The notes beneath the pieces are model-generated. The model was given only the letters and a program-made list of their open reading frames with translations, did no database searches and was not told the origin of the DNA. Below are positions 552-7,649 of a stretch of 9,854 nt of DNA, one piece after another. How positions within the stretch are numbered: the first letter of the stretch is position 1; each line of letters starts with the position of its first letter. The translations under genes were made by a program, and so were the position numbers. This DNA comes from a virus (Duplodnaviria > Heunggongvirae > Uroviricota > Caudoviricetes), in IMG/VR virus record IMGVR_UViG_2877973648_000003; one strand, written 5' to 3'.

Positions 552-566
552 AAATTTTTATAATAA
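552..566. other. attL core (lambda-type attachment site, host/prophage junction)
   Basis: AAATTTTTATAATAA followed by GTTGGCATTATAAAAAAGCATTGCTTATCAATTTGTTGCAACGAACAGG matches the recalled lambda attP core and P' arm (lambda core GCTTTTTTATACTAA). The left three bases differ, as expected for a host arm. One C-to-A difference lies in the overlap region (TTTATAA versus TTTATAC). Confidence 0.8.
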
Positions 567-574
567 GTTGGCAT

Positions 575-645
575 TATAAAAAAGCATTGCTTATCAATTT
601 GTTGCAACGAACAGGTCACTATCAGTCAAAATAAAATCATTATTT
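575..645. promoter_or_regulatory. attL P' arm: IHF-type site and Int arm-type binding sites (P'1-P'3)
   Basis: CAGGTCACTAT (612-622), CAGTCAAAAT (623-632) and AAAATCATTAT (about 634-645) fit the Int arm-type consensus. The upstream TTATCAATTTGTTGCAACGAACAGG resembles the lambda H' IHF site. The int stop lies 74 bp from the core, as in lambda. Confidence 0.75.
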
Positions 646-1710
646 GATTTCAATTTTGTCCCACTCCCTGCCTCTGTCATCACGATACTGTGATGCCATG
701 GTGTCCGACTTATGCCCGAGAAGATGTTGAGCAAACTTATCGCTTATCTGCTTCTCATAGAGTCTTGCAGACAAACTGCGCAACTCGTGAAAGGTAGGCG
801 GATCCCCTTCGAAGGAAAGACCTGATGCTTTTCGTGCGCGCATAAAATACCTTGATACTGTGCCGGATGAAAGCGGTTCGCGACGAGTAGATGCAATTAT
901 GGTTTCTCCGCCAAGAATCTCTTTGCATTTATCAAGTGTTTCCTTCATTGATATTCCGAGAGCATCAACATGCAATACTGTTGGGATGGCAATTTTTACG
1001 CCTGTTTTGCTTTGCTCGACATAAAGATATCCATCTACGATATCAGACCACTTCATTTCGCATAAATCACCAACTCGTTGCCCGGTAACAACAGCCAGTT
1101 CCATTGCAAGTCTGAGCCAACATGGTGATGATTCTGCTGCTTGATAAATTTTCAGGTATTCGTCAGCCGTAAGTCTTGATCTCCTTACCTCTGATTTTGC
1201 TGCGCGAGTGGCAGCGACAGGGTTTGTTGTTATATGGCCTTCAGCTATTGCCTCTCGGAATGCATCGCTCAGTGTTGATCTGATTAACTTGGCTGACGCC
1301 GCCTTGCCCTCGTCTATGTATCCATTGAGCATTGCCGCAATTTCTTTTGTGGTGATGTCTTCAAGTGGAGCATCAGGCAGACCCCTCCTTATTGCTTTAA
1401 TTTTGCTCATGTAATTTATGAGTGTCTTCTGCTTGATTCCTCTGCTGGCCAGGATTTTTTCGTAGCGATCAAGCCATGAATGTAACGTAACGGAATTATC
1501 ACTGTTGATTCTCGCTGTCAGAGGCTTGTGTTTGTGTCCTGAAAATAACTCAATGTTGGCCTGTATAGCTTCAGTGATTGCGATTCGCCTGTCTCTGCCT
1601 AATCCAAACTCTTTACCCGTCCTTGGGTCCCTGTAGCAGTAATATCCATTGTTTCTTATATAAAGGTTAGGGGGTAAATCCCGGCGCTCATGACTTCGCC
1701 TTCTTCCCAT
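640..1710 (-). CDS. int: Tyrosine integrase, lambda Int (356 aa)
   Basis: The translation is near-identical to lambda Int as I recall it (MGRRRSHERRDLPPNLYIRNNGYYCYRDPRTGKEF...REWDKIEIK) and has the catalytic R/K/H/R/H/Y residues including the LLGH and Y motif near the C-terminus. It overlaps xis as in lambda and is adjacent to the att site. Confidence 0.97.
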   Translation of the reverse strand: MGRRRSHERRDLPPNLYIRNNGYYCYRDPRTGKEFGLGRDRRIAITEAIQANIELFSGHKHKPLTARINSDNSVTLHSWLDRYEKILASRGIKQKTLINYMSKIKAIRRGLPDAPLEDITTKEIAAMLNGYIDEGKAASAKLIRSTLSDAFREAIAEGHITTNPVAATRAAKSEVRRSRLTADEYLKIYQAAESSPCWLRLAMELAVVTGQRVGDLCEMKWSDIVDGYLYVEQSKTGVKIAIPTVLHVDALGISMKETLDKCKEILGGETIIASTRREPLSSGTVSRYFMRARKASGLSFEGDPPTFHELRSLSARLYEKQISDKFAQHLLGHKSDTMASQYRDDRGREWDKIEIK

Positions 1711-1906
1711 TTCTGATCCTCTTCAAAAGGCTACCTGTTACTGGTCGATTTAAGTCAACCTTTACCGCTGATTCGTGGAACAGATACTCTCTTCCATCCT
1801 TAACCGGAGGAGGGAATATCCTGCACTCGCGTACCCATCGACGAACTGTTTCAAGGCTTCTTGGGCGTCGCTGGCGTGCGTTCCACTCCTGAAGTGTCAA
1901 GTACAT
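1688..1906 (-). CDS. xis: Excisionase Xis (72 aa)
   Basis: MYLTLQEWNARQRRPRSLETVRRWVRECRIFPPPVKDGREYLFHESAVKVDLNRPVTGSLLKRIRNGKKAKS matches lambda Xis in sequence and length. Its 3' end overlaps the int start. Confidence 0.95.
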   Translation of the reverse strand: MYLTLQEWNARQRRPRSLETVRRWVRECRIFPPPVKDGREYLFHESAVKVDLNRPVTGSLLKRIRNGKKAKS

Positions 1907-1930
1907 CGCAAAGTCTCCGCAATTACACGC

Positions 1931-1953
1931 AAGAAAAAACCGCCATCAGGCGG
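1931..1953 (-). terminator. Putative intrinsic terminator (5-bp GC stem CCGCC/GGCGG, 4-nt loop, then six Us on the minus strand)
   Basis: On the minus strand: GCCGCCUGAUGGCGG followed by UUUUUUCUU. The stop codon of the 55-codon ORF sits in the loop. The stem is short, so confidence is moderate. Confidence 0.4.
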
Positions 1954-2113
1954 CTTGGTGTTCTTTCAGTTCTTCAATTCGAATATTGGTTACGTCTGCA
2001 TGTGCTATCTGCGCCCATATCATCCAGTGGTTATAACAGTCGTTGATGTTCTCTGCTTCGATAACCCTGTTGAATGGCTCTCCATTCCATTCACCTGTGA
2101 CTCGGAAGTGCAT
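1946..2113 (-). CDS. Small hypothetical protein (55 aa), positional counterpart of the lambda small ORF next to xis
   Basis: Found by my own translation; it is below the size cutoff of the ORF track. MHFRVTGEWNGEPFNRVIEAENINDCYNHWMIWAQIAHADVTNIRIEELKEHQAA. Same size and position as the lambda 55-codon ORF right of xis. Confidence 0.6.
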   Translation of the reverse strand: MHFRVTGEWNGEPFNRVIEAENINDCYNHWMIWAQIAHADVTNIRIEELKEHQAA

Positions 2114-2124
2114 TTATCATCTCC

Positions 2125-2151
2125 ATAAAACAAAACTCGCCGTAGCGAGTT
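2125..2151 (-). terminator. Putative intrinsic terminator downstream of the 142-aa gene
   Basis: On the minus strand: AACUCGC-UACG-GCGAGUU (7-bp stem) followed by UUGUUUUAU. It lies between the stop of the 142-aa ORF (2197) and the start of the 55-codon ORF (2113). Confidence 0.5.
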
Positions 2152-2196
2152 CAGATATAATTTCCACCAAAGGCAGTAGTTGCTTGATGCTAAGAA

Positions 2197-2625
2197 TTAT
2201 TCAATATCTATTCCTGTAATCTCTTTTATCTTTTTCCTTGCAAAGCCTTTTGCTAGTGATTTTGAAACACTCATAAGTGTACTAATTCCCTCATCCTTAA
2301 AGTTTGTTTTTATAGCTTGCCAGACATCCTTTTGACGTAAGTCAGCAATAAAATCATGCCCTCTTGCTGTCAACCTCAGTGGTACTTCGATCCAACTATA
2401 TCCAACACCTTCCCCTAACGCTTTGGACAATATATGACCGAACCCAGGTTTTCCATCAACCCTGACTATTAATTCGTAGTCACATAATAATCGCATATGG
2501 AAAATAAAATCTTGGTCATATCTATTAAAGCCATTATCCTCTAGTTCACTAAGCATCGTGTCAGGGCCACGAGTTTTTTCGAATGCGATAAGTAGATCTT
2601 TTAGATATTGCTGGTCTAATTTCAT
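2197..2625 (-). CDS. Hypothetical protein, 142 aa, AT-rich accessory (moron-like) gene of unknown function
   Basis: Clean ORF with a strong SD (GGAGGCG) 5-7 nt upstream of the ATG. Base composition is visibly more AT-rich than the flanking lambda-like genes (by eye, not computed). No signal peptide or TM segment is evident. I do not recognise the family with confidence. Confidence 0.6.
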   Translation of the reverse strand: MKLDQQYLKDLLIAFEKTRGPDTMLSELEDNGFNRYDQDFIFHMRLLCDYELIVRVDGKPGFGHILSKALGEGVGYSWIEVPLRLTARGHDFIADLRQKDVWQAIKTNFKDEGISTLMSVSKSLAKGFARKKIKEITGIDIE

Positions 2626-2635
2626 TGCCGCCTCC

Positions 2636-2647
2636 GTGACATGTCAC
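2636..2647. promoter_or_regulatory. Perfect 12-bp palindrome GTGACATGTCAC in the 28-bp gap between the 112-aa and 142-aa genes
   Basis: Read directly from the sequence: the motif equals its own reverse complement. It sits just upstream of the SD of the 142-aa gene. Confidence 0.35.
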
Positions 2648-2653
2648 AGAGAT

Positions 2654-2992
2654 TTATATCATTAATTTTGTTTCGTGCCAGCCTTTGGTCACCCAGCATT
2701 GTGAGTCACCATTACACGGGCATGAATTAACAGGAACTCTCTCGCCGCACTTACCGCACCGTTTTCTGCTGATCGATTTTATACGCCAGCGCACACGTGC
2801 ATCATCCTGGCGGCTCAGTAACGCGATGTACTCACCAAACTCGCAAGGCGCACGCCTGAAGCGACGCGTGGCACAGTTACGCTCCAGCATTTCAATTTCC
2901 TGAGCATCAAGTACAAGCTCCAGCTTACGCATACCGGATGATGCTTGCTTGGCTCTCTGATCGGCTTTGTGCTCTGTTGCTGATTTAGCCAT
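2654..2992 (-). CDS. Small basic Cys-rich protein (112 aa), probable zinc-ribbon; occupies the position of lambda ea8.5
   Basis: ORF with an SD-like AGGAAAA upstream. The C-terminal part has CGKCG...CPC...C spacing typical of a zinc ribbon. Base composition resembles the lambda-like backbone. Any identity with Ea8.5 is positional inference only. Confidence 0.55.
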   Translation of the reverse strand: MAKSATEHKADQRAKQASSGMRKLELVLDAQEIEMLERNCATRRFRRAPCEFGEYIALLSRQDDARVRWRIKSISRKRCGKCGERVPVNSCPCNGDSQCWVTKGWHETKLMI

Positions 2993-3188
2993 TCTGCTTT
3001 TCCTGCATCAGGAGAAAGACAATCATGGCGGCGCGGATACTTCCGGTATCTTTATACGCGATATTCCCCTTCAATGGCACATACAAGAAGAGAGCCATCA
3101 ACAGGAGTGATTGAGGAATCGACAACCAGCAACGCTTAATTATCTATAGTGTCGTATTTGCTTCATAAAATATGGCGAATAACACAAA

Positions 3189-3220
3189 GCCCGCAGCAGC
3201 TCATTGTGCGGGCTTTTCTT
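3189..3220 (-). terminator. Putative bidirectional intrinsic terminator (GCCCGCA...TGCGGGC, 7-bp stem) downstream of the secreted-protein gene
   Basis: Stem 3189-3195 pairs with 3207-3213 around an 11-nt loop. It is followed by TTTTCTT on the plus strand and UUUGUGUU on the minus strand, about 70 nt past the stop at 3286. Confidence 0.55.
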
Positions 3221-3285
3221 ATACCTACTTCCTAGAGATAATTCTATGGAGGCATTAAATCAATACTGTCATTGGTAATATCATA

Positions 3286-3900
3286 TTATCTAAAAGTCTT
3301 TCCACTTTTAACATCTAGGTATATTCTGTTCGACAACGTCATTCCTCCGCAATATGTGAAATAGATGTTTTCACCCTTATTGCTTGATGCCATCCACCCT
3401 CCGATTTCCTTAAAATCGCTTTCCGTGCAGACCCCTTCATTTATTAACTTCCTAGCTGCCGAAGAAAACTCTTTTTTGTATATACGGTAGTCATCAGATC
3501 CTTTGATTAAAGTATCATCTCCGCTCGCATTTTCAGCAGGATCTGATGGCCTTTCACTGCTAAGATCACTAAATTTAACCCATTCTGAAAACTTGCCATT
3601 AACGATTCCATTTTTTCTTGTGCAGGATTTATTACCTTCTTTAATATATTCGCTTTCCCCTCCAACACATGAGGCTGAATATGGCTCAGTTATACGAACC
3701 CATTCACCTTTTTTTTCTAGAAAATCTACGCCTTCCCTGAAAAATAGTTTCCCAGCCACTCCACATTTACTTGAAGGGCAGGTATGTCTTTCCGTTCGAT
3801 CAACAACAACCCATAGTTTTGATTCATTTTTTGCCATTGCCGATGGTATTTGAGATGAGACAATTAACGTAAGCCCTAAAATTAGTATTGATTTTTTCAT
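3286..3900 (-). CDS. Secreted or periplasmic Cys-rich protein, 204 aa, unknown function (AT-rich moron)
   Basis: N-terminus MKKSILILGLTLIVSSQIPSAMA-KNE is a classical Sec signal peptide with an AXA cleavage motif. The mature part is hydrophilic with about 8 Cys. SD AAGGAAA lies 6-7 nt upstream of the ATG. The gene is AT-rich and has its own terminator. It does not match Bor, Lom or Cor as I recall them. Confidence 0.7.
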   Translation of the reverse strand: MKKSILILGLTLIVSSQIPSAMAKNESKLWVVVDRTERHTCPSSKCGVAGKLFFREGVDFLEKKGEWVRITEPYSASCVGGESEYIKEGNKSCTRKNGIVNGKFSEWVKFSDLSSERPSDPAENASGDDTLIKGSDDYRIYKKEFSSAARKLINEGVCTESDFKEIGGWMASSNKGENIYFTYCGGMTLSNRIYLDVKSGKTFR

Positions 3901-4198
3901 TGTAATTTCCTTTTACTTTTTACAAAGCGTTTAATCATGGCTGATTATCTCTAAGTGTAGTAACAGCCTTGTGCGAAACATGTTACCAAATCGCCATTTC
4001 AGTGTATCCGCAGTTAGGCTGCCACTTCAAGGATTCCTAATTACATGGTACGTAAGCGTAAAATCCCGTTGGTTGGCGGGTAATAACTCTGATCAAATCT
4101 CCCTTGTCTTTTGCTCTTACGTATGCAGCTCTTGTGTATTCAACCCAGGCCTCCAGTTCAGCAATACGCTTACTTCCATCCGAGATAACACCTTCTAC

Positions 4199-4450
4199 TC
4201 ACGCTGCTCGTTGAGTTTTGATTTTTGCTGTCTCCAGCTCAACACGCAGTTTCCCCACCGTTAGCGCAATATCCTCGTTCTCCTGGTCGCGGCGTTTGAT
4301 GTATTGCTGGTTTCTTTCCCGTTCATCCAGCAGTGTCAGCACAATCGATGGTGTTACCAGCTCATGGAAAAGGTCCGCGTCAAATCCCCAGTTGTCAGGC
4401 ATTGCCTGCTCTGCCGCTTCACGCAGTGCCTGAGAGTGAATTACGCTCAC
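4199..4450 (-). CDS. ea22: Ea22-like protein, N-terminal segment (83 aa) ending at an in-frame TGA; the reading frame stays open for 53 further codons (4040-4198) to a TAG at 4037-4039
   Basis: MSVIHSQALREAAEQAMPDNWGFDADLFHELVTPSIVLTLLDERERNQQYIKRRDQENEDIALTVGKLRVELETAKIKTQRAA resembles the lambda Ea22 N-terminus as I recall it. After the TGA, the same frame reads VEGVISDGSKRIAELEAWVEYTRAAYVRAKDKGDLIRVITRQPTGFYAYVPCN. Its 3' end overlaps the start of the TraR-like gene. Confidence 0.55.
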   Translation of the reverse strand: MSVIHSQALREAAEQAMPDNWGFDADLFHELVTPSIVLTLLDERERNQQYIKRRDQENEDIALTVGKLRVELETAKIKTQRAA

Positions 4451-4668
4451 TTCGAACCTCTCTGTTTACTGATAAGCTCCAGATCTTCCTGGCAACTTGC
4501 ACAAGTCCGACAACCCTGAACGGCCAGGCGTCTTAGCTCATCTATGGGATCGCCACACTCACAACAATGAGTGGCAGATACAGCCTGGTGGTTCAGGCGG
4601 CGCATTTTTATTGCTGTGTTGCGCTGTAATTCTTCAATTTCTGATGCTGAATCAATGATGTCTGCCAT
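4447..4668 (-). CDS. DksA/TraR-family C4 zinc-finger protein (73 aa), lambda Orf73/TraR-like
   Basis: 73 aa with paired Cys-x2-Cys motifs (CCEC ... CRTCASC) and the size typical of TraR-family proteins. It sits where lambdoid phages carry their TraR homologue in the early-left operon. Confidence 0.75.
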   Translation of the reverse strand: MADIIDSASEIEELQRNTAIKMRRLNHQAVSATHCCECGDPIDELRRLAVQGCRTCASCQEDLELISKQRGSK

Positions 4669-4766
4669 CTTCCATTAATCCCTGAATTGTTGGTTAATAC
4701 GCTTGGGGGTAAATGCGAGCAATAAAAAAGGAGCCTGTAGCTCCCTGATAATTTTGCTTTTCATGT

Positions 4767-5048
4767 TCATCGTTCCTTAAAGACGCCGTTTAACATGCCG
4801 ATTGCCAGGCTTAAATGAGTCGGTGTGAATCCCATCAGCGTTACCGTTTCGCGGTGCTTCTTCAGTACGCTACGGCAAATGTCATCGACGTTTTTATCCG
4901 GAAACTGCTGTCTGGCTTTTTTGATTTCAGAATTAGCCTGACGGGCAATGCTGCGAAGGGCGTTTTCTTGCTGAGGTGTCATTGAACAAGCCCCATGTCG
5001 GCAAGCATAAGCACACAGAATATGAAGCCCGCTGCCAGAAAAATGCAT
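4767..5048 (-). CDS. Small early-left-operon protein (lambda orf61-like); start ambiguous (93 aa from 5048, or 71 aa from the ATG at 4982)
   Basis: ORF in the expected position and orientation. The 5048 start lies 10 nt after the upstream gene stop and has no obvious SD. The internal ATG at 4982 overlaps the TGA of a 5-codon upstream mini-ORF (ATGA), a translational-coupling arrangement. Confidence 0.5.
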   Translation of the reverse strand: MHFSGSGLHILCAYACRHGACSMTPQQENALRSIARQANSEIKKARQQFPDKNVDDICRSVLKKHRETVTLMGFTPTHLSLAIGMLNGVFKER

Positions 5049-5058
5049 TCAGTGGTTG

Positions 5059-5250
5059 TCATACCTGGTCTCTCTCATCTGCTTCTGCTTTCGCCACCAT
5101 CATTTCCAGCTTTTGTGAAAGGGATGCGGCTAACGTATGAAATTCTTCGTCTGTTTCTACTGGTATTGGCACAAACCTGACTCCAATTTGAGCGAGGCTA
5201 TGTGCCATCTCGATACACGTTCTTAACTCAACAGGAGATGCTTTGTGCAT
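5059..5250 (-). CDS. Small early-left-operon protein, 63 aa (lambda orf63-like)
   Basis: 63-aa ORF with a G-rich SD (GGGGGG) upstream. Size and position match lambda orf63. Confidence 0.6.
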   Translation of the reverse strand: MHKASPVELRTCIEMAHSLAQIGVRFVPIPVETDEEFHTLAASLSQKLEMMVAKAEADERDQV

Positions 5251-5368
5251 ACAGCCCCCCGTTTATTATTTATCTCCTCAGCCAGCCGCTGTGCTTTCAG
5301 GGGATTTCTGATAACAGAAAGGCCGGGAAATACCCAGCCTCGCTTTGTAACGGAGTAGACGAAAGTGA

Positions 5369-5593
5369 TCGCACCTACCGGAAACAACGCGCGGCGCTCT
5401 TTACTCGTTCGTCTATAACGTGGGCGCAGGCAATTTCAGAACATCTACTCTTCTTCGCAAAATAAACCAGGGCGATATCAAGGGCGCATGTGACCAGCTA
5501 CGTCGCTGGGCATACGCTGGCGGTAAGCAATGGAAAGGCCTGATGACTCGTCGTGAGATTGAGCGTGAGGTCTGTTTGTGGGGGCAACAATGA
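5369..5593 (+). pseudogene. 3' remnant of an endolysin gene (T4-type/P21-type lysozyme R); N-terminal catalytic part absent and frameshifted upstream
   Basis: In-frame translation ...[71 protein letters not shown] matches the C-terminus of E. coli cryptic-prophage lysozymes as I recall them. There is no start codon. An in-frame TGA at 5366-5368 and a shifted frame lie upstream. The stop overlaps the Rz start (ATGA). Confidence 0.75.
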
Positions 5594-6054: not shown

Positions 6055-6191
6055 AATCTTAACTACAATATGATTCATTTTGATGATTGTTTCATAAGGA
6101 ACAGTGAAGTAAGATCTAAGAGGAGTTAAATTTTATACAGTATAATCATAATATTGCAGCAAGGTGGTTATAATTGAAAGAATATTTAGAT

Positions 6192-7649
6192 ATGAATACA
6201 TCTCATGTAAGAGTTGTTACTCATATGTGTGGGTTCCTGGTTTGGCTCTATAGTCTTTCAATGTTGCCACCAATGGTTGTAGCATTGTTTTATAAAGAAA
6301 AAAGCCTGTTCGTTTTCTTTATAACTTTCGTTATATTTTTTTGCATTGGTGGCGGAGCGTGGTATACAACTAAGAAATCTGGCATTCAATTACGTACCCG
6401 TGATGGGTTTATTATAATTGTAATGTTTTGGATTTTGTTTTCTGTTATTAGTGCATTCCCTTTATGGATTGACTCAGAACTTAATTTAACGTTCATTGAT
6501 GCTCTGTTTGAAGGGGTTTCTGGAATAACAACAACAGGAGCAACTGTAATTGATGATGTTAGTTCATTACCTCGGGCATATTTGTACTATCGGTCACAGT
6601 TAAATTTTATAGGTGGTTTAGGAGTTATTGTTCTGGCGGTTGCTGTATTGCCATTATTGGGTATTGGTGGTACAAAGCTTTATCAGTCAGAAATGCCGGG
6701 GCCATTTAAGGATGACAAACTCACTCCCCGCCTGGCCGATACGTCACGGACACTGTGGATAACTTATTCTTTATTAGGTATTGCTTGTATTGTCTGTTAT
6801 AGACTTGCAGGAATGCCTTTGTTTGATGCTATTTGTCACGGGATTTCCACAGTTTCGCTTGGTGGTTTCTCAACTCATAGCGAGAGTATCGGATATTTTA
6901 ATAACTATTTGGTTGAGCTGGTGGCTGGTTCTTTTTCCCTGCTATCGGCTTTCAACTTCACTCTTTGGTATATTGTTATTAGCAGGAAAACGATAAAACC
7001 TTTAATCAGAGATATTGAACTTCGTTTCTTTCTGTTAATAGCCTTAGGGGTGATCATTGTTACCTCTTTCCAGGTCTGGCATATAGGTATGTATGACTTG
7101 CATGGAAGTTTTATTCATTCGTTTTTTCTTGCCAGCTCCATGCTCACTGATAATGGTTTAGCTACGCAGGATTATGCAAACTGGCCCACGCACACGATAG
7201 TGTTTTTGCTGTCGTCAAGTTTCTTTGGGGGATGTATAGGTTCAACTTGTGGTGGAATTAAGTCACTTCGATTTCTTATACTTTTCAAACAAAGCAAACA
7301 CGAGATAAATCAGCTTTCTCATCCCAGAGCGTTGTTGAGTGTAAATGTAGGAGGGAAGATAGTTACAGATCGTGTAATGAGGTCTGTATGGAGTTTCTTT
7401 TTTCTTTATACTCTCTTCACGGTGTTTTTTATACTGGTGTTAAATGGTATGGGATATGATTTTCTTACATCATTTGCAACAGTGGCTGCATGTATTAATA
7501 ATATGGGATTAGGTTTTGGGGCTACTGCATCGTCATTCGGAGTGCTTAATGACATTGCAAAATATTTAATGTGCATAGCTATGATTCTTGGTCGCCTTGA
7601 AATTTATCCTGTTATTATATTGTTTTCAGGTTTTTTTTGGCGCTCCTAA
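6192..7649 (+). CDS. trkG: TrkH/TrkG-family potassium uptake protein (485 aa from the ATG at 6192; the ORF track extends to a TTG at 6174)
   Basis: Polytopic membrane protein with the repeated GxGG-type selectivity-filter segments (FEGVSGITTTGATV, STVSLGGFSTHSES, GSTCGGIKSLR, ACINNMGLGFGATASS). It is near-identical to E. coli TrkG as I recall it. The gene is AT-rich and lies immediately downstream of Rz/Rz1, the same arrangement as in the Rac prophage. Confidence 0.9.
   Translation: MNTSHVRVVTHMCGFLVWLYSLSMLPPMVVALFYKEKSLFVFFITFVIFFCIGGGAWYTTKKSGIQLRTRDGFIIIVMFWILFSVISAFPLWIDSELNLTFIDALFEGVSGITTTGATVIDDVSSLPRAYLYYRSQLNFIGGLGVIVLAVAVLPLLGIGGTKLYQSEMPGPFKDDKLTPRLADTSRTLWITYSLLGIACIVCYRLAGMPLFDAICHGISTVSLGGFSTHSESIGYFNNYLVELVAGSFSLLSAFNFTLWYIVISRKTIKPLIRDIELRFFLLIALGVIIVTSFQVWHIGMYDLHGSFIHSFFLASSMLTDNGLATQDYANWPTHTIVFLLSSSFFGGCIGSTCGGIKSLRFLILFKQSKHEINQLSHPRALLSVNVGGKIVTDRVMRSVWSFFFLYTLFTVFFILVLNGMGYDFLTSFATVAACINNMGLGFGATASSFGVLNDIAKYLMCIAMILGRLEIYPVIILFSGFFWRS

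Follow-up and report, generated by a model that had tools for sequence, protein, structure and literature searches.

A cargo gene of lambdoid prophages encodes a predicted periplasmic protein with a previously undescribed C-terminal domain

The closest described counterparts of the gene studied here come from phages and from bacterial cell walls. T4 Spackle is a periplasmic disulfide-bonded inhibitor of the gp5 tail lysozyme that acts in superinfection exclusion (PMC7677548), the extra2 subdomain of MapZ from Streptococcus pneumoniae binds sacculi (PMC4931243), and independent accessory transcription units in phage genomes are known as morons (PMC3594210). Here we analyse a 204-codon gene, the target gene, on the minus strand of a 9,854-nucleotide stretch of DNA (IMG/VR record IMGVR_UViG_2877973648_000003; the window), which is a composite defective prophage of E. 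coli. Its product, the target protein, is predicted to be exported by Sec and to remain in the periplasm as a soluble protein of about 20 kDa once the signal peptide is cleaved, and the gene is accessory cargo, taken up repeatedly by lambdoid phages, by other prophages and by small integrase islands. New here are the undescribed family defined by the C-terminal domain of the protein (the C-domain) and the repeated capture of this family by mobile elements.

Like T4 Spackle, the target protein is small and phage-encoded, is predicted to be exported to the periplasm and disulfide-bonded, and appears to act alone. Spackle itself, however, is all-helical, a bundle of 75 residues, and comes from a virulent phage, and neither Spackle nor Ivy, MliC/PliC, PliG or PliI matches the target protein in sequence or fold. 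With Ivy, PliC/MliC, PliI and PliG it shares the layout of an orphan gene for a small periplasmic protein; the PliC/MliC family exists in soluble and lipoprotein versions, an analogy to the target family, in which both kinds of N-terminus are seen. As an accessory envelope protein of lambdoid phages it resembles the lambda morons Bor and Lom and the Cor-type exclusion lipoproteins, but it is neither a lipoprotein nor an outer-membrane beta-barrel, and its gene is found among the early-left ea genes and not with the late or tail genes. Moron-type features of the gene are its absence from related genomes, its deviant base composition and a downstream hairpin.

Compared with the SH3b domains of known cell-wall-binding proteins (lysostaphin SH3b, endolysin domains and NlpC/P60 modules), the target protein has no attached hydrolase domain, carries a Cys-stapled insertion of about 30 residues (~74-105), which P0079 and other divergent relatives lack, and is predicted to be periplasmic in a Gram-negative host, with peptidoglycan binding only putative. 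The only functional lead is a weak and distant structural similarity of the C-domain to MapZ extracellular subdomain 2 (PDB 2NDA, a peptidoglycan-binding fold). A first-pass annotation of this DNA had noted no likeness to Bor, Lom or Cor, and searches of Pfam (only sub-threshold SH3_3 and LPAM_1) and PHROGs (only phrog_8310) bear it out. They also give no clear homology to a characterised phage structural protein, the full-length PHROG match (phrog_8310, E 5e-136) being to a family of unknown function. Searches with the target protein returned zero families from PADLOC-DB 2.0 at E ≤ 1 and no match from NCBIfam or, with the single sequence, from the PDB, and the literature yielded nothing on the protein, its accession, its PHROG or its motif.

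The target gene is the one long open reading frame (ORF) on the minus strand within the interval 3189-4036 in the ORF list, and RefSeq annotates a 'hypothetical protein' of the same extent. The gene and its export signal are as follows.

3286..3900, minus strand: target gene, protein-coding, 204 codons plus a TAA stop (WP_000748281.1; phrog_8310)
3832..3900, minus strand: signal peptide, residues 1-23, reading MKK, then SILILGLTLIVSS, then QIPSAMA, with the predicted cut before K24 (direct reading and hydropathy)

The 204-residue ORF with a Sec signal peptide and an AMA-K cleavage motif, as first annotated, is real by the ORF list, RefSeq and direct reading with hydropathy. The N-terminus, MKKSILILGLTLIVSSQIPSAMA before the cut and KNES after it, has two lysines, a hydrophobic core of 12-13 residues with a Kyte-Doolittle peak of 2.34, and Ala at −3 and −1, so that direct reading and hydropathy find all the elements of a Sec/signal peptidase I substrate (a positive n-region, an h-region of 10-15 residues and AXA). 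Homologues keep an AXA-type signal, a lipobox or a transmembrane (TM) anchor at this position despite sequence drift. By direct reading the target protein has no lipobox of the form L-[AS]-[GA]-C; because there is no Cys before residue 41, the protein is not a lipoprotein, and its match to Pfam LPAM_1 is sub-threshold (14.1 versus 20 bits).

An AlphaFold2 model built with a 42-sequence alignment has a mean predicted local distance difference test score (pLDDT) of 90, with values above 90 for residues 31-204, and divides the mature protein into two domains tightly joined by a short connector.

3565..3822, minus strand: SH3b-type beta-barrel domain, residues ~27-112, with an inserted loop at ~74-105 and conserved Cys 41, 46, 78 and 93
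3535..3552, minus strand: inter-domain connector R117-P-x-D-P-A122, nearly invariant in the alignment; residues 111-120 have a pLDDT of 96
3289..3528, minus strand: C-terminal alpha/beta domain, residues ~125-204, with motifs SDD[YF], GGW..S and YFTYCGG and the Cys158/Cys184 pair

The modelled N-terminal domain has an SH3-like beta-barrel fold and is assigned to SH3b on that basis, the sequence evidence for this assignment holding at the family level only: Pfam SH3_3 is found at E ≤ 0.01 in 33 of the 42 aligned homologues and rises above its cut-off in some of them (P0079, 32.8 bits; P0103, 30.8 bits; P0080, 28.6 bits). In the viral structure library BFVD, SH3b proteins and endolysins are the only matches, none of them at E ≤ 1e-3. 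The C-domain, which runs in the model from a short helix through a long helix and a third helix to three main strands, keeps a pLDDT of 88.7 when modelled alone and has no Pfam match in the target protein or in ten divergent relatives. The residues that never vary in it are Gly, Cys, aromatics, Ser and Asp; no catalytic set of His, Glu or Lys is obvious among them, for which reason it looks like a binding module and not an enzyme. Profile searches of PDB sequences also returned de novo designed TIM barrels (E down to 8e-9), an artefact in which four repeats, each with an i-Evalue above 4, are summed over a short helical stretch.

The cysteines, first counted as about eight, number six (41, 46, 78, 93, 158 and 184), and their pattern suggests stapling by disulfides 41-46, 78-93 and 158-184. 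Cys158 and Cys184 co-occur in nearly all members with a C-domain. The four SH3b cysteines are present together in 103 sequences and are lost in divergent SH3b versions; P0079, for example, has neither the 41/46 pair nor the loop bearing 78/93. Together with the signal features, this pairing of conserved cysteines across the family upholds the earlier description of an exported, Cys-paired protein located in the envelope.

An exhaustive search with a hidden Markov model profile of the C-domain finds 530 clusters (50% identity level) at E ≤ 1e-3. The C-domain is always C-terminal in these proteins, which show six architectures.

Architecture 1: signal peptide or lipobox plus the C-domain alone, ~100 amino acids (for example P0095)
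Architecture 2: signal peptide, SH3b and C-domain, ~200 amino acids
Architecture 3: TM anchor, SH3b and C-domain
Architecture 4: cytoplasmic zinc-ribbon, TM segment, SH3b and C-domain (P0086, P0088)
Architecture 5: signal peptide, ankyrin repeats, SH3b and C-domain (P0102)
Architecture 6: tandem duplication of the C-domain (P0082)

Because the C-domain recurs alone, in tandem or behind other anchors, it would be the conserved functional core, with SH3b and the anchors serving as targeting devices. A crude classification of the N-termini of 227 family sequences gives 82 that are signal-peptide-like, 36 with a lipobox and 35 with an internal TM segment, the rest being mostly fragments. The C-domain thus appears, from sequence comparison, to be the conserved core of a large and previously undescribed family of envelope proteins in diderm bacteria. 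In a genome scan for family loci, which used a 10-sequence C-domain alignment, most of the wider family proved to be encoded on the chromosomes of marine and soil Proteobacteria, and its core function is therefore not phage-specific. The source names of all family members are 'hypothetical' or 'exported hypothetical'.

Closer to the target protein, we found 81 homologues. Proteins of 204 residues at 60-69% identity occur in Pseudomonas and Aeromonas, and more distant ones, at 30-55% identity, are spread over Proteobacteria and further diderm phyla. In Pseudomonas and Aeromonas the start codon of the homologues is TTG, not ATG (L003 7001, L006 7001 and L014 6001). Within E. coli, the target gene occurs in ~2.5% of complete genomes (132-134 of 5426). 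Alleles in the attLambda prophages of other strains differ by 1.8-2.6% of nucleotides, with 8-10 synonymous and 3-7 non-synonymous changes, and the ratio of non-synonymous to synonymous rates (dN/dS) among E. coli alleles is 0.10-0.18. In other strains the 112-amino-acid ORF near the target gene is interrupted by a stop codon and only remnants of ea22 and the UmuD-like gene are left, while the target ORF is intact. These patterns indicate a real, functional gene that is under purifying selection while its neighbours decay. Antisense ORFs inside the gene (for example 3503..3853, plus strand) were set aside, as the homologues and dN/dS back the minus-strand frame.

Comparison of the window with phage lambda by blastn places the target gene in a discrete substitution. 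Window 555-2161 is 98.9% identical to lambda int-xis, and 4152-5379 is 96.0% identical to lambda ea22(5′)-orf61-orf63-orf60a; between these flanks there is no lambda match.

2162..4151, no strand: substitution block relative to lambda, 1990 bp, containing a DUF2513 gene, a 112-amino-acid ORF, a UmuD-like remnant and the target gene

The block stands in place of lambda 29334-30093, which holds ea8.5 and the 3′ part of ea22. The target gene had been placed in a short gap between ea8.5 and ea22; because the block substitutes both ea8.5 and the 3′ part of ea22, it does not lie in that gap. The isolated phage Chlobot matches all of 555-5379 at 99.9% identity, and the same composite block is also found on chromosomes and on 145-454 kb plasmids beside IS26.

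Lambda lacks the target gene at the equivalent place though the flanks match at 96-99%. The base composition is deviant: the AT-richness noted in the first-pass annotation stands, the ORF having a guanine-cytosine (GC) content of 0.379 and 0.298 at third codon positions (GC3) versus 0.437 for the window, with 0.48-0.52 in windows 2551-3150 and 4051-4650 on either side, as in a cargo gene of the non-essential early-left region of a lambdoid prophage. Homologues too are poorer in GC than the locus around them in every case examined (0.49-0.50 versus 0.55-0.58 in Pseudomonas; marginally, 0.488 versus 0.497, in Aeromonas). For a transcription unit of its own, the hairpin with a T-tract is plausible as a terminator (z −2.17), and the best promoter candidate is sub-threshold (8/12). 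The gene therefore fits the moron pattern, with the 'own promoter' part of it not convincingly established. The signals concerned are these.

3908-3912, minus strand: Shine-Dalgarno sequence AAGGA, 7 nt before the ATG (direct reading), identical in three alleles
3180..3221, no strand: terminator-like hairpin with arms GCCCGCA (3189-3195) and TGCGGGC (3207-3213)
4001..4030, minus strand: weak sigma-70-like promoter candidate TTGAAG-18 nt-TACACT, 8/12, read by eye and below the scan threshold

The start region reads AAAAGGAAATTACA-ATG, and the strong Shine-Dalgarno sequence claimed earlier is the AAGGA listed above. The hairpin at 3189-3213 sits 70 nt downstream of the target ORF, with T-rich flanks on both strands (TTTTCTTAT on the plus strand and TTTGTGTTA on the minus strand), in keeping with the bidirectional terminator first proposed. 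The 71-nt stretch around it folds at −22 kcal/mol (z −2.17 versus shuffles), and a simple terminator scan caught only part of the hairpin, on the plus strand. It is kept in three alleles, with two uncompensated changes at the stem base in strain 90-1, and three alleles also share the hexamers of the promoter candidate (4030..4001). Upstream of the gene, a 4-bp hairpin at 4065-4080 was dropped as a terminator, being no better than shuffles (z −0.88). Promoter and terminator scans around the Pseudomonas and Aeromonas homologues found no consistent cassette signals.

Moron-like behaviour is also indicated because the positions of the homologues differ among unrelated phages and prophages and are integrase-adjacent in Pseudomonas islands. 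In IMG/VR, target homologues occur in 51 viral contigs. At one locus (L133) the homologue lies between a phrog_546 gene and the large terminase gene, and at another (L139) it is inserted on the opposite strand among head and tail genes. The Aeromonas homologue is located in a prophage, and in Pseudomonas the homologue comes directly after a tyrosine integrase, in ~5-kb islands whose gene set is conserved. These islands (L003 5402-11411; L006-L009) share unannotated genes for proteins of 208/236, 105/108, 130/131 (weak DUF6971) and 336/337 amino acids, and the L003 island also encodes a 174-amino-acid KilA-N protein; they may represent an undescribed small integrative element or satellite. Across 80 genome loci we found no conserved partner gene: the top neighbour cluster is present in 12 loci that seem to form one related group and is therefore read as synteny. 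When the 128 immediate neighbours were compared with Pfam and PADLOC, the results were heterogeneous, with scattered defence-type hits (TIR, PDC-S35 and a type IV restriction enzyme, each twice); being heterogeneous and scattered, these are no evidence for a defence island.

What the protein does can be proposed only tentatively. The reading that we favour, though we would not call it probable, is a protective, peptidoglycan-tethered periplasmic binder or blocker. The SH3b domain would tether the protein to peptidoglycan, and the C-domain would bind a second periplasmic target. This target could be the glycan or wall itself, as for MapZ extra2, giving a bivalent wall binder or shield, or else a wall-attacking protein such as a phage tail lysin, a lysozyme or a peptidoglycan-targeting effector, giving a wall-localised inhibitor. 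In either case the wall of the carrier cell would be shielded, and a phage cargo would protect the cell that carries it. The constraint on the gene, its conservation across genera, the export features, the binding-module look of the C-domain and the mobility of the gene speak for this reading. The protein would act stoichiometrically rather than as an enzyme, and alone, since no neighbour is conserved in the 80 loci. We regard as doubtful a bolder version, in which the C-domain would be a new periplasmic effector module of diderms and the protein an SH3b-tethered, stand-alone gatekeeper that blocks phage genome entry or neutralises wall-degrading weapons with a fold unrelated to Spackle or to lysozyme inhibitors, and that is traded across genera for that reason.

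Several observations weigh against a protective binder or blocker. SH3b domains are not invariably peptidoglycan binders, and the match of the target protein itself to Pfam SH3_3 (PF08239) is sub-threshold, at 15.9 bits versus a cut-off of 27. The target protein matches no known periplasmic inhibitor or defence protein, and neither experiment nor annotation ties any family member to a function. Most members lie in ordinary chromosomal contexts, which fit a housekeeping envelope role equally with a protective one. No sigma-70-like promoter on the minus strand passes the scan in 2900-4400, so that expression of the gene from a repressed prophage would be hypothetical. Moreover, in Chlobot, an intact phage, the gene lies between xis and exo in the orientation of the pL operon (exo-bet-gam ... 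xis-int), as a gene of the lytic cycle could.

The chromosomal contexts point to a rival that we judge rather unlikely, an envelope housekeeping adaptor acting in periplasmic peptidoglycan remodelling or regulation, for instance by binding or positioning a host wall enzyme, with the phage copy a passenger or mild fitness factor that has no part in phage-phage or host-weapon conflict. Most of the 80 loci are indeed chromosomal (Rhodobacteraceae, Rhizobiales, Vibrio and others), beside pheST/metW or nap genes and with synteny at the level of the taxon; many members are membrane-anchored or lipoproteins, like wall-associated regulators of the Lpo or MapZ type, and the resemblance to MapZ extra2 suits such a role. 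A passenger is harder to reconcile with repeated capture by phages and integrase islands at 60-69% identity across genera or with retention under purifying selection inside decaying prophages, which suggests a benefit travelling with the mobile element, and an adaptor for a wall enzyme has no conserved enzyme partner gene to point to. A role in exclusion or lysogenic conversion, as the first-pass annotation proposed, is plausible, with no support specific to exclusion; the results weigh neither for nor against this label, or those of serum resistance and lysozyme inhibition. In its strict form, a true superinfection-exclusion factor would block entry of an incoming phage genome by inhibiting the tail-associated peptidoglycan hydrolase or by obstructing the tail tip or DNA channel, a Spackle-like function in an unrelated fold. 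Spackle provides the precedent of a periplasmic, disulfide-bonded inhibitor of a tail lysozyme (PMC7677548), and the predicted periplasmic location, small size and disulfides of the target protein are in line with it. So is the place of the gene in temperate phages: it is a near neighbour of int/xis in E. coli and directly adjoins int in Pseudomonas, a common site for conversion genes. A few copies also adjoin genes of defence type, namely those for TIR effectors, for a type IV restriction enzyme, for PDC-S35 and for DruA. Nevertheless, we consider this form unlikely, as PADLOC gives no match, there is no relation in fold or sequence to Spackle, Llp, Cor or Sie proteins, no promoter for the lysogenic state passes the scan, the family lies mostly outside mobile elements, and the neighbour survey shows no consistent association with defence islands.

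The pL-operon orientation in Chlobot bears on a further alternative, a lytic-cycle accessory protein, made from pL under N antitermination once the prophage is induced. Its target would be the producing cell's own wall (for example through lysis timing or through the wall before release), and it would not act in the lysogen. The lack of a convincing promoter of its own and the position of the L133 homologue just upstream of the large terminase gene, among late genes, would suit it, but a long distance separates the gene from the lysis cassette in lambdoid phages, it stays intact in defective prophages without pL, N and lysis-control genes, as in the window, many homologues lie outside phages, and its own downstream hairpin suggests a separate transcription unit; we hold this alternative to be improbable. 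Still further from credible, to our minds, is a secreted virulence, adhesion or toxin-type factor directed against eukaryotic hosts or competitors: one family member has ankyrin repeats (P0102), while the family occurs mainly in free-living marine and soil bacteria, Pfam finds no toxin domain, and, with Sec as the only secretion signal, the protein should go no further than the periplasm.

The remainder of the window is consistent with its composite nature. The lambda-like int/xis/ea segment stops within an orf60a (DUF1317) homologue at ~5379, where it is fused to a Rac-like part; to the right of 5379 lie an rrrD (lysis) fragment, Rz/Rz1, trkG, a ParB-like gene, tfa and a truncated tail-fibre gene. 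Like the target gene, trkG (6174-7649) is AT-rich cargo, with a GC content of 0.33-0.42 versus ~0.50 in its flanks. On the minus strand of the substitution block are also the DUF2513 gene and the 112-amino-acid ORF (2197-2625 and 2654-2992), the latter with a Cys-rich C-terminus, CGKCG...CPCNGDSQC. A 26-codon 'DNA repair' (UmuD-like) remnant is annotated by RefSeq at 3056-3133 on the minus strand, just beyond the terminator hairpin; on nearly identical DNA the 'UmuD-like' ORF called in the Chlobot record is longer, and the two annotations disagree. Near the start of lambda identity (555), the sequence GCTTTTTTATAATGC at 571-585 on the minus strand resembles the lambda att core GCTTTTTTATACTAA, with three mismatches at the end. 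It may be a hybrid att site beside a Dps-family gene, not at ybhC, and such a match is expected by chance in ~40% of shuffles. Rfam and tRNA scans of the window gave no matches.

The part that single-gene periplasmic factors of prophages play in phage-host and bacterial competition biology is under-explored, and the target gene is a clean candidate for study: it appears to act alone, is 60-69% identical between phages of E. coli and mobile elements of Pseudomonas and Aeromonas, and is intact in decaying prophages. If the target protein merely binds peptidoglycan without a phenotype, the gene would be an ordinary accessory gene. The C-domain has a wider reach. Its family numbers at least 530 clusters at 50% identity, with no Pfam model or informative solved structure, and its members are often secreted proteins of ~100 residues; describing this domain would annotate thousands of envelope proteins now listed as 'hypothetical'.

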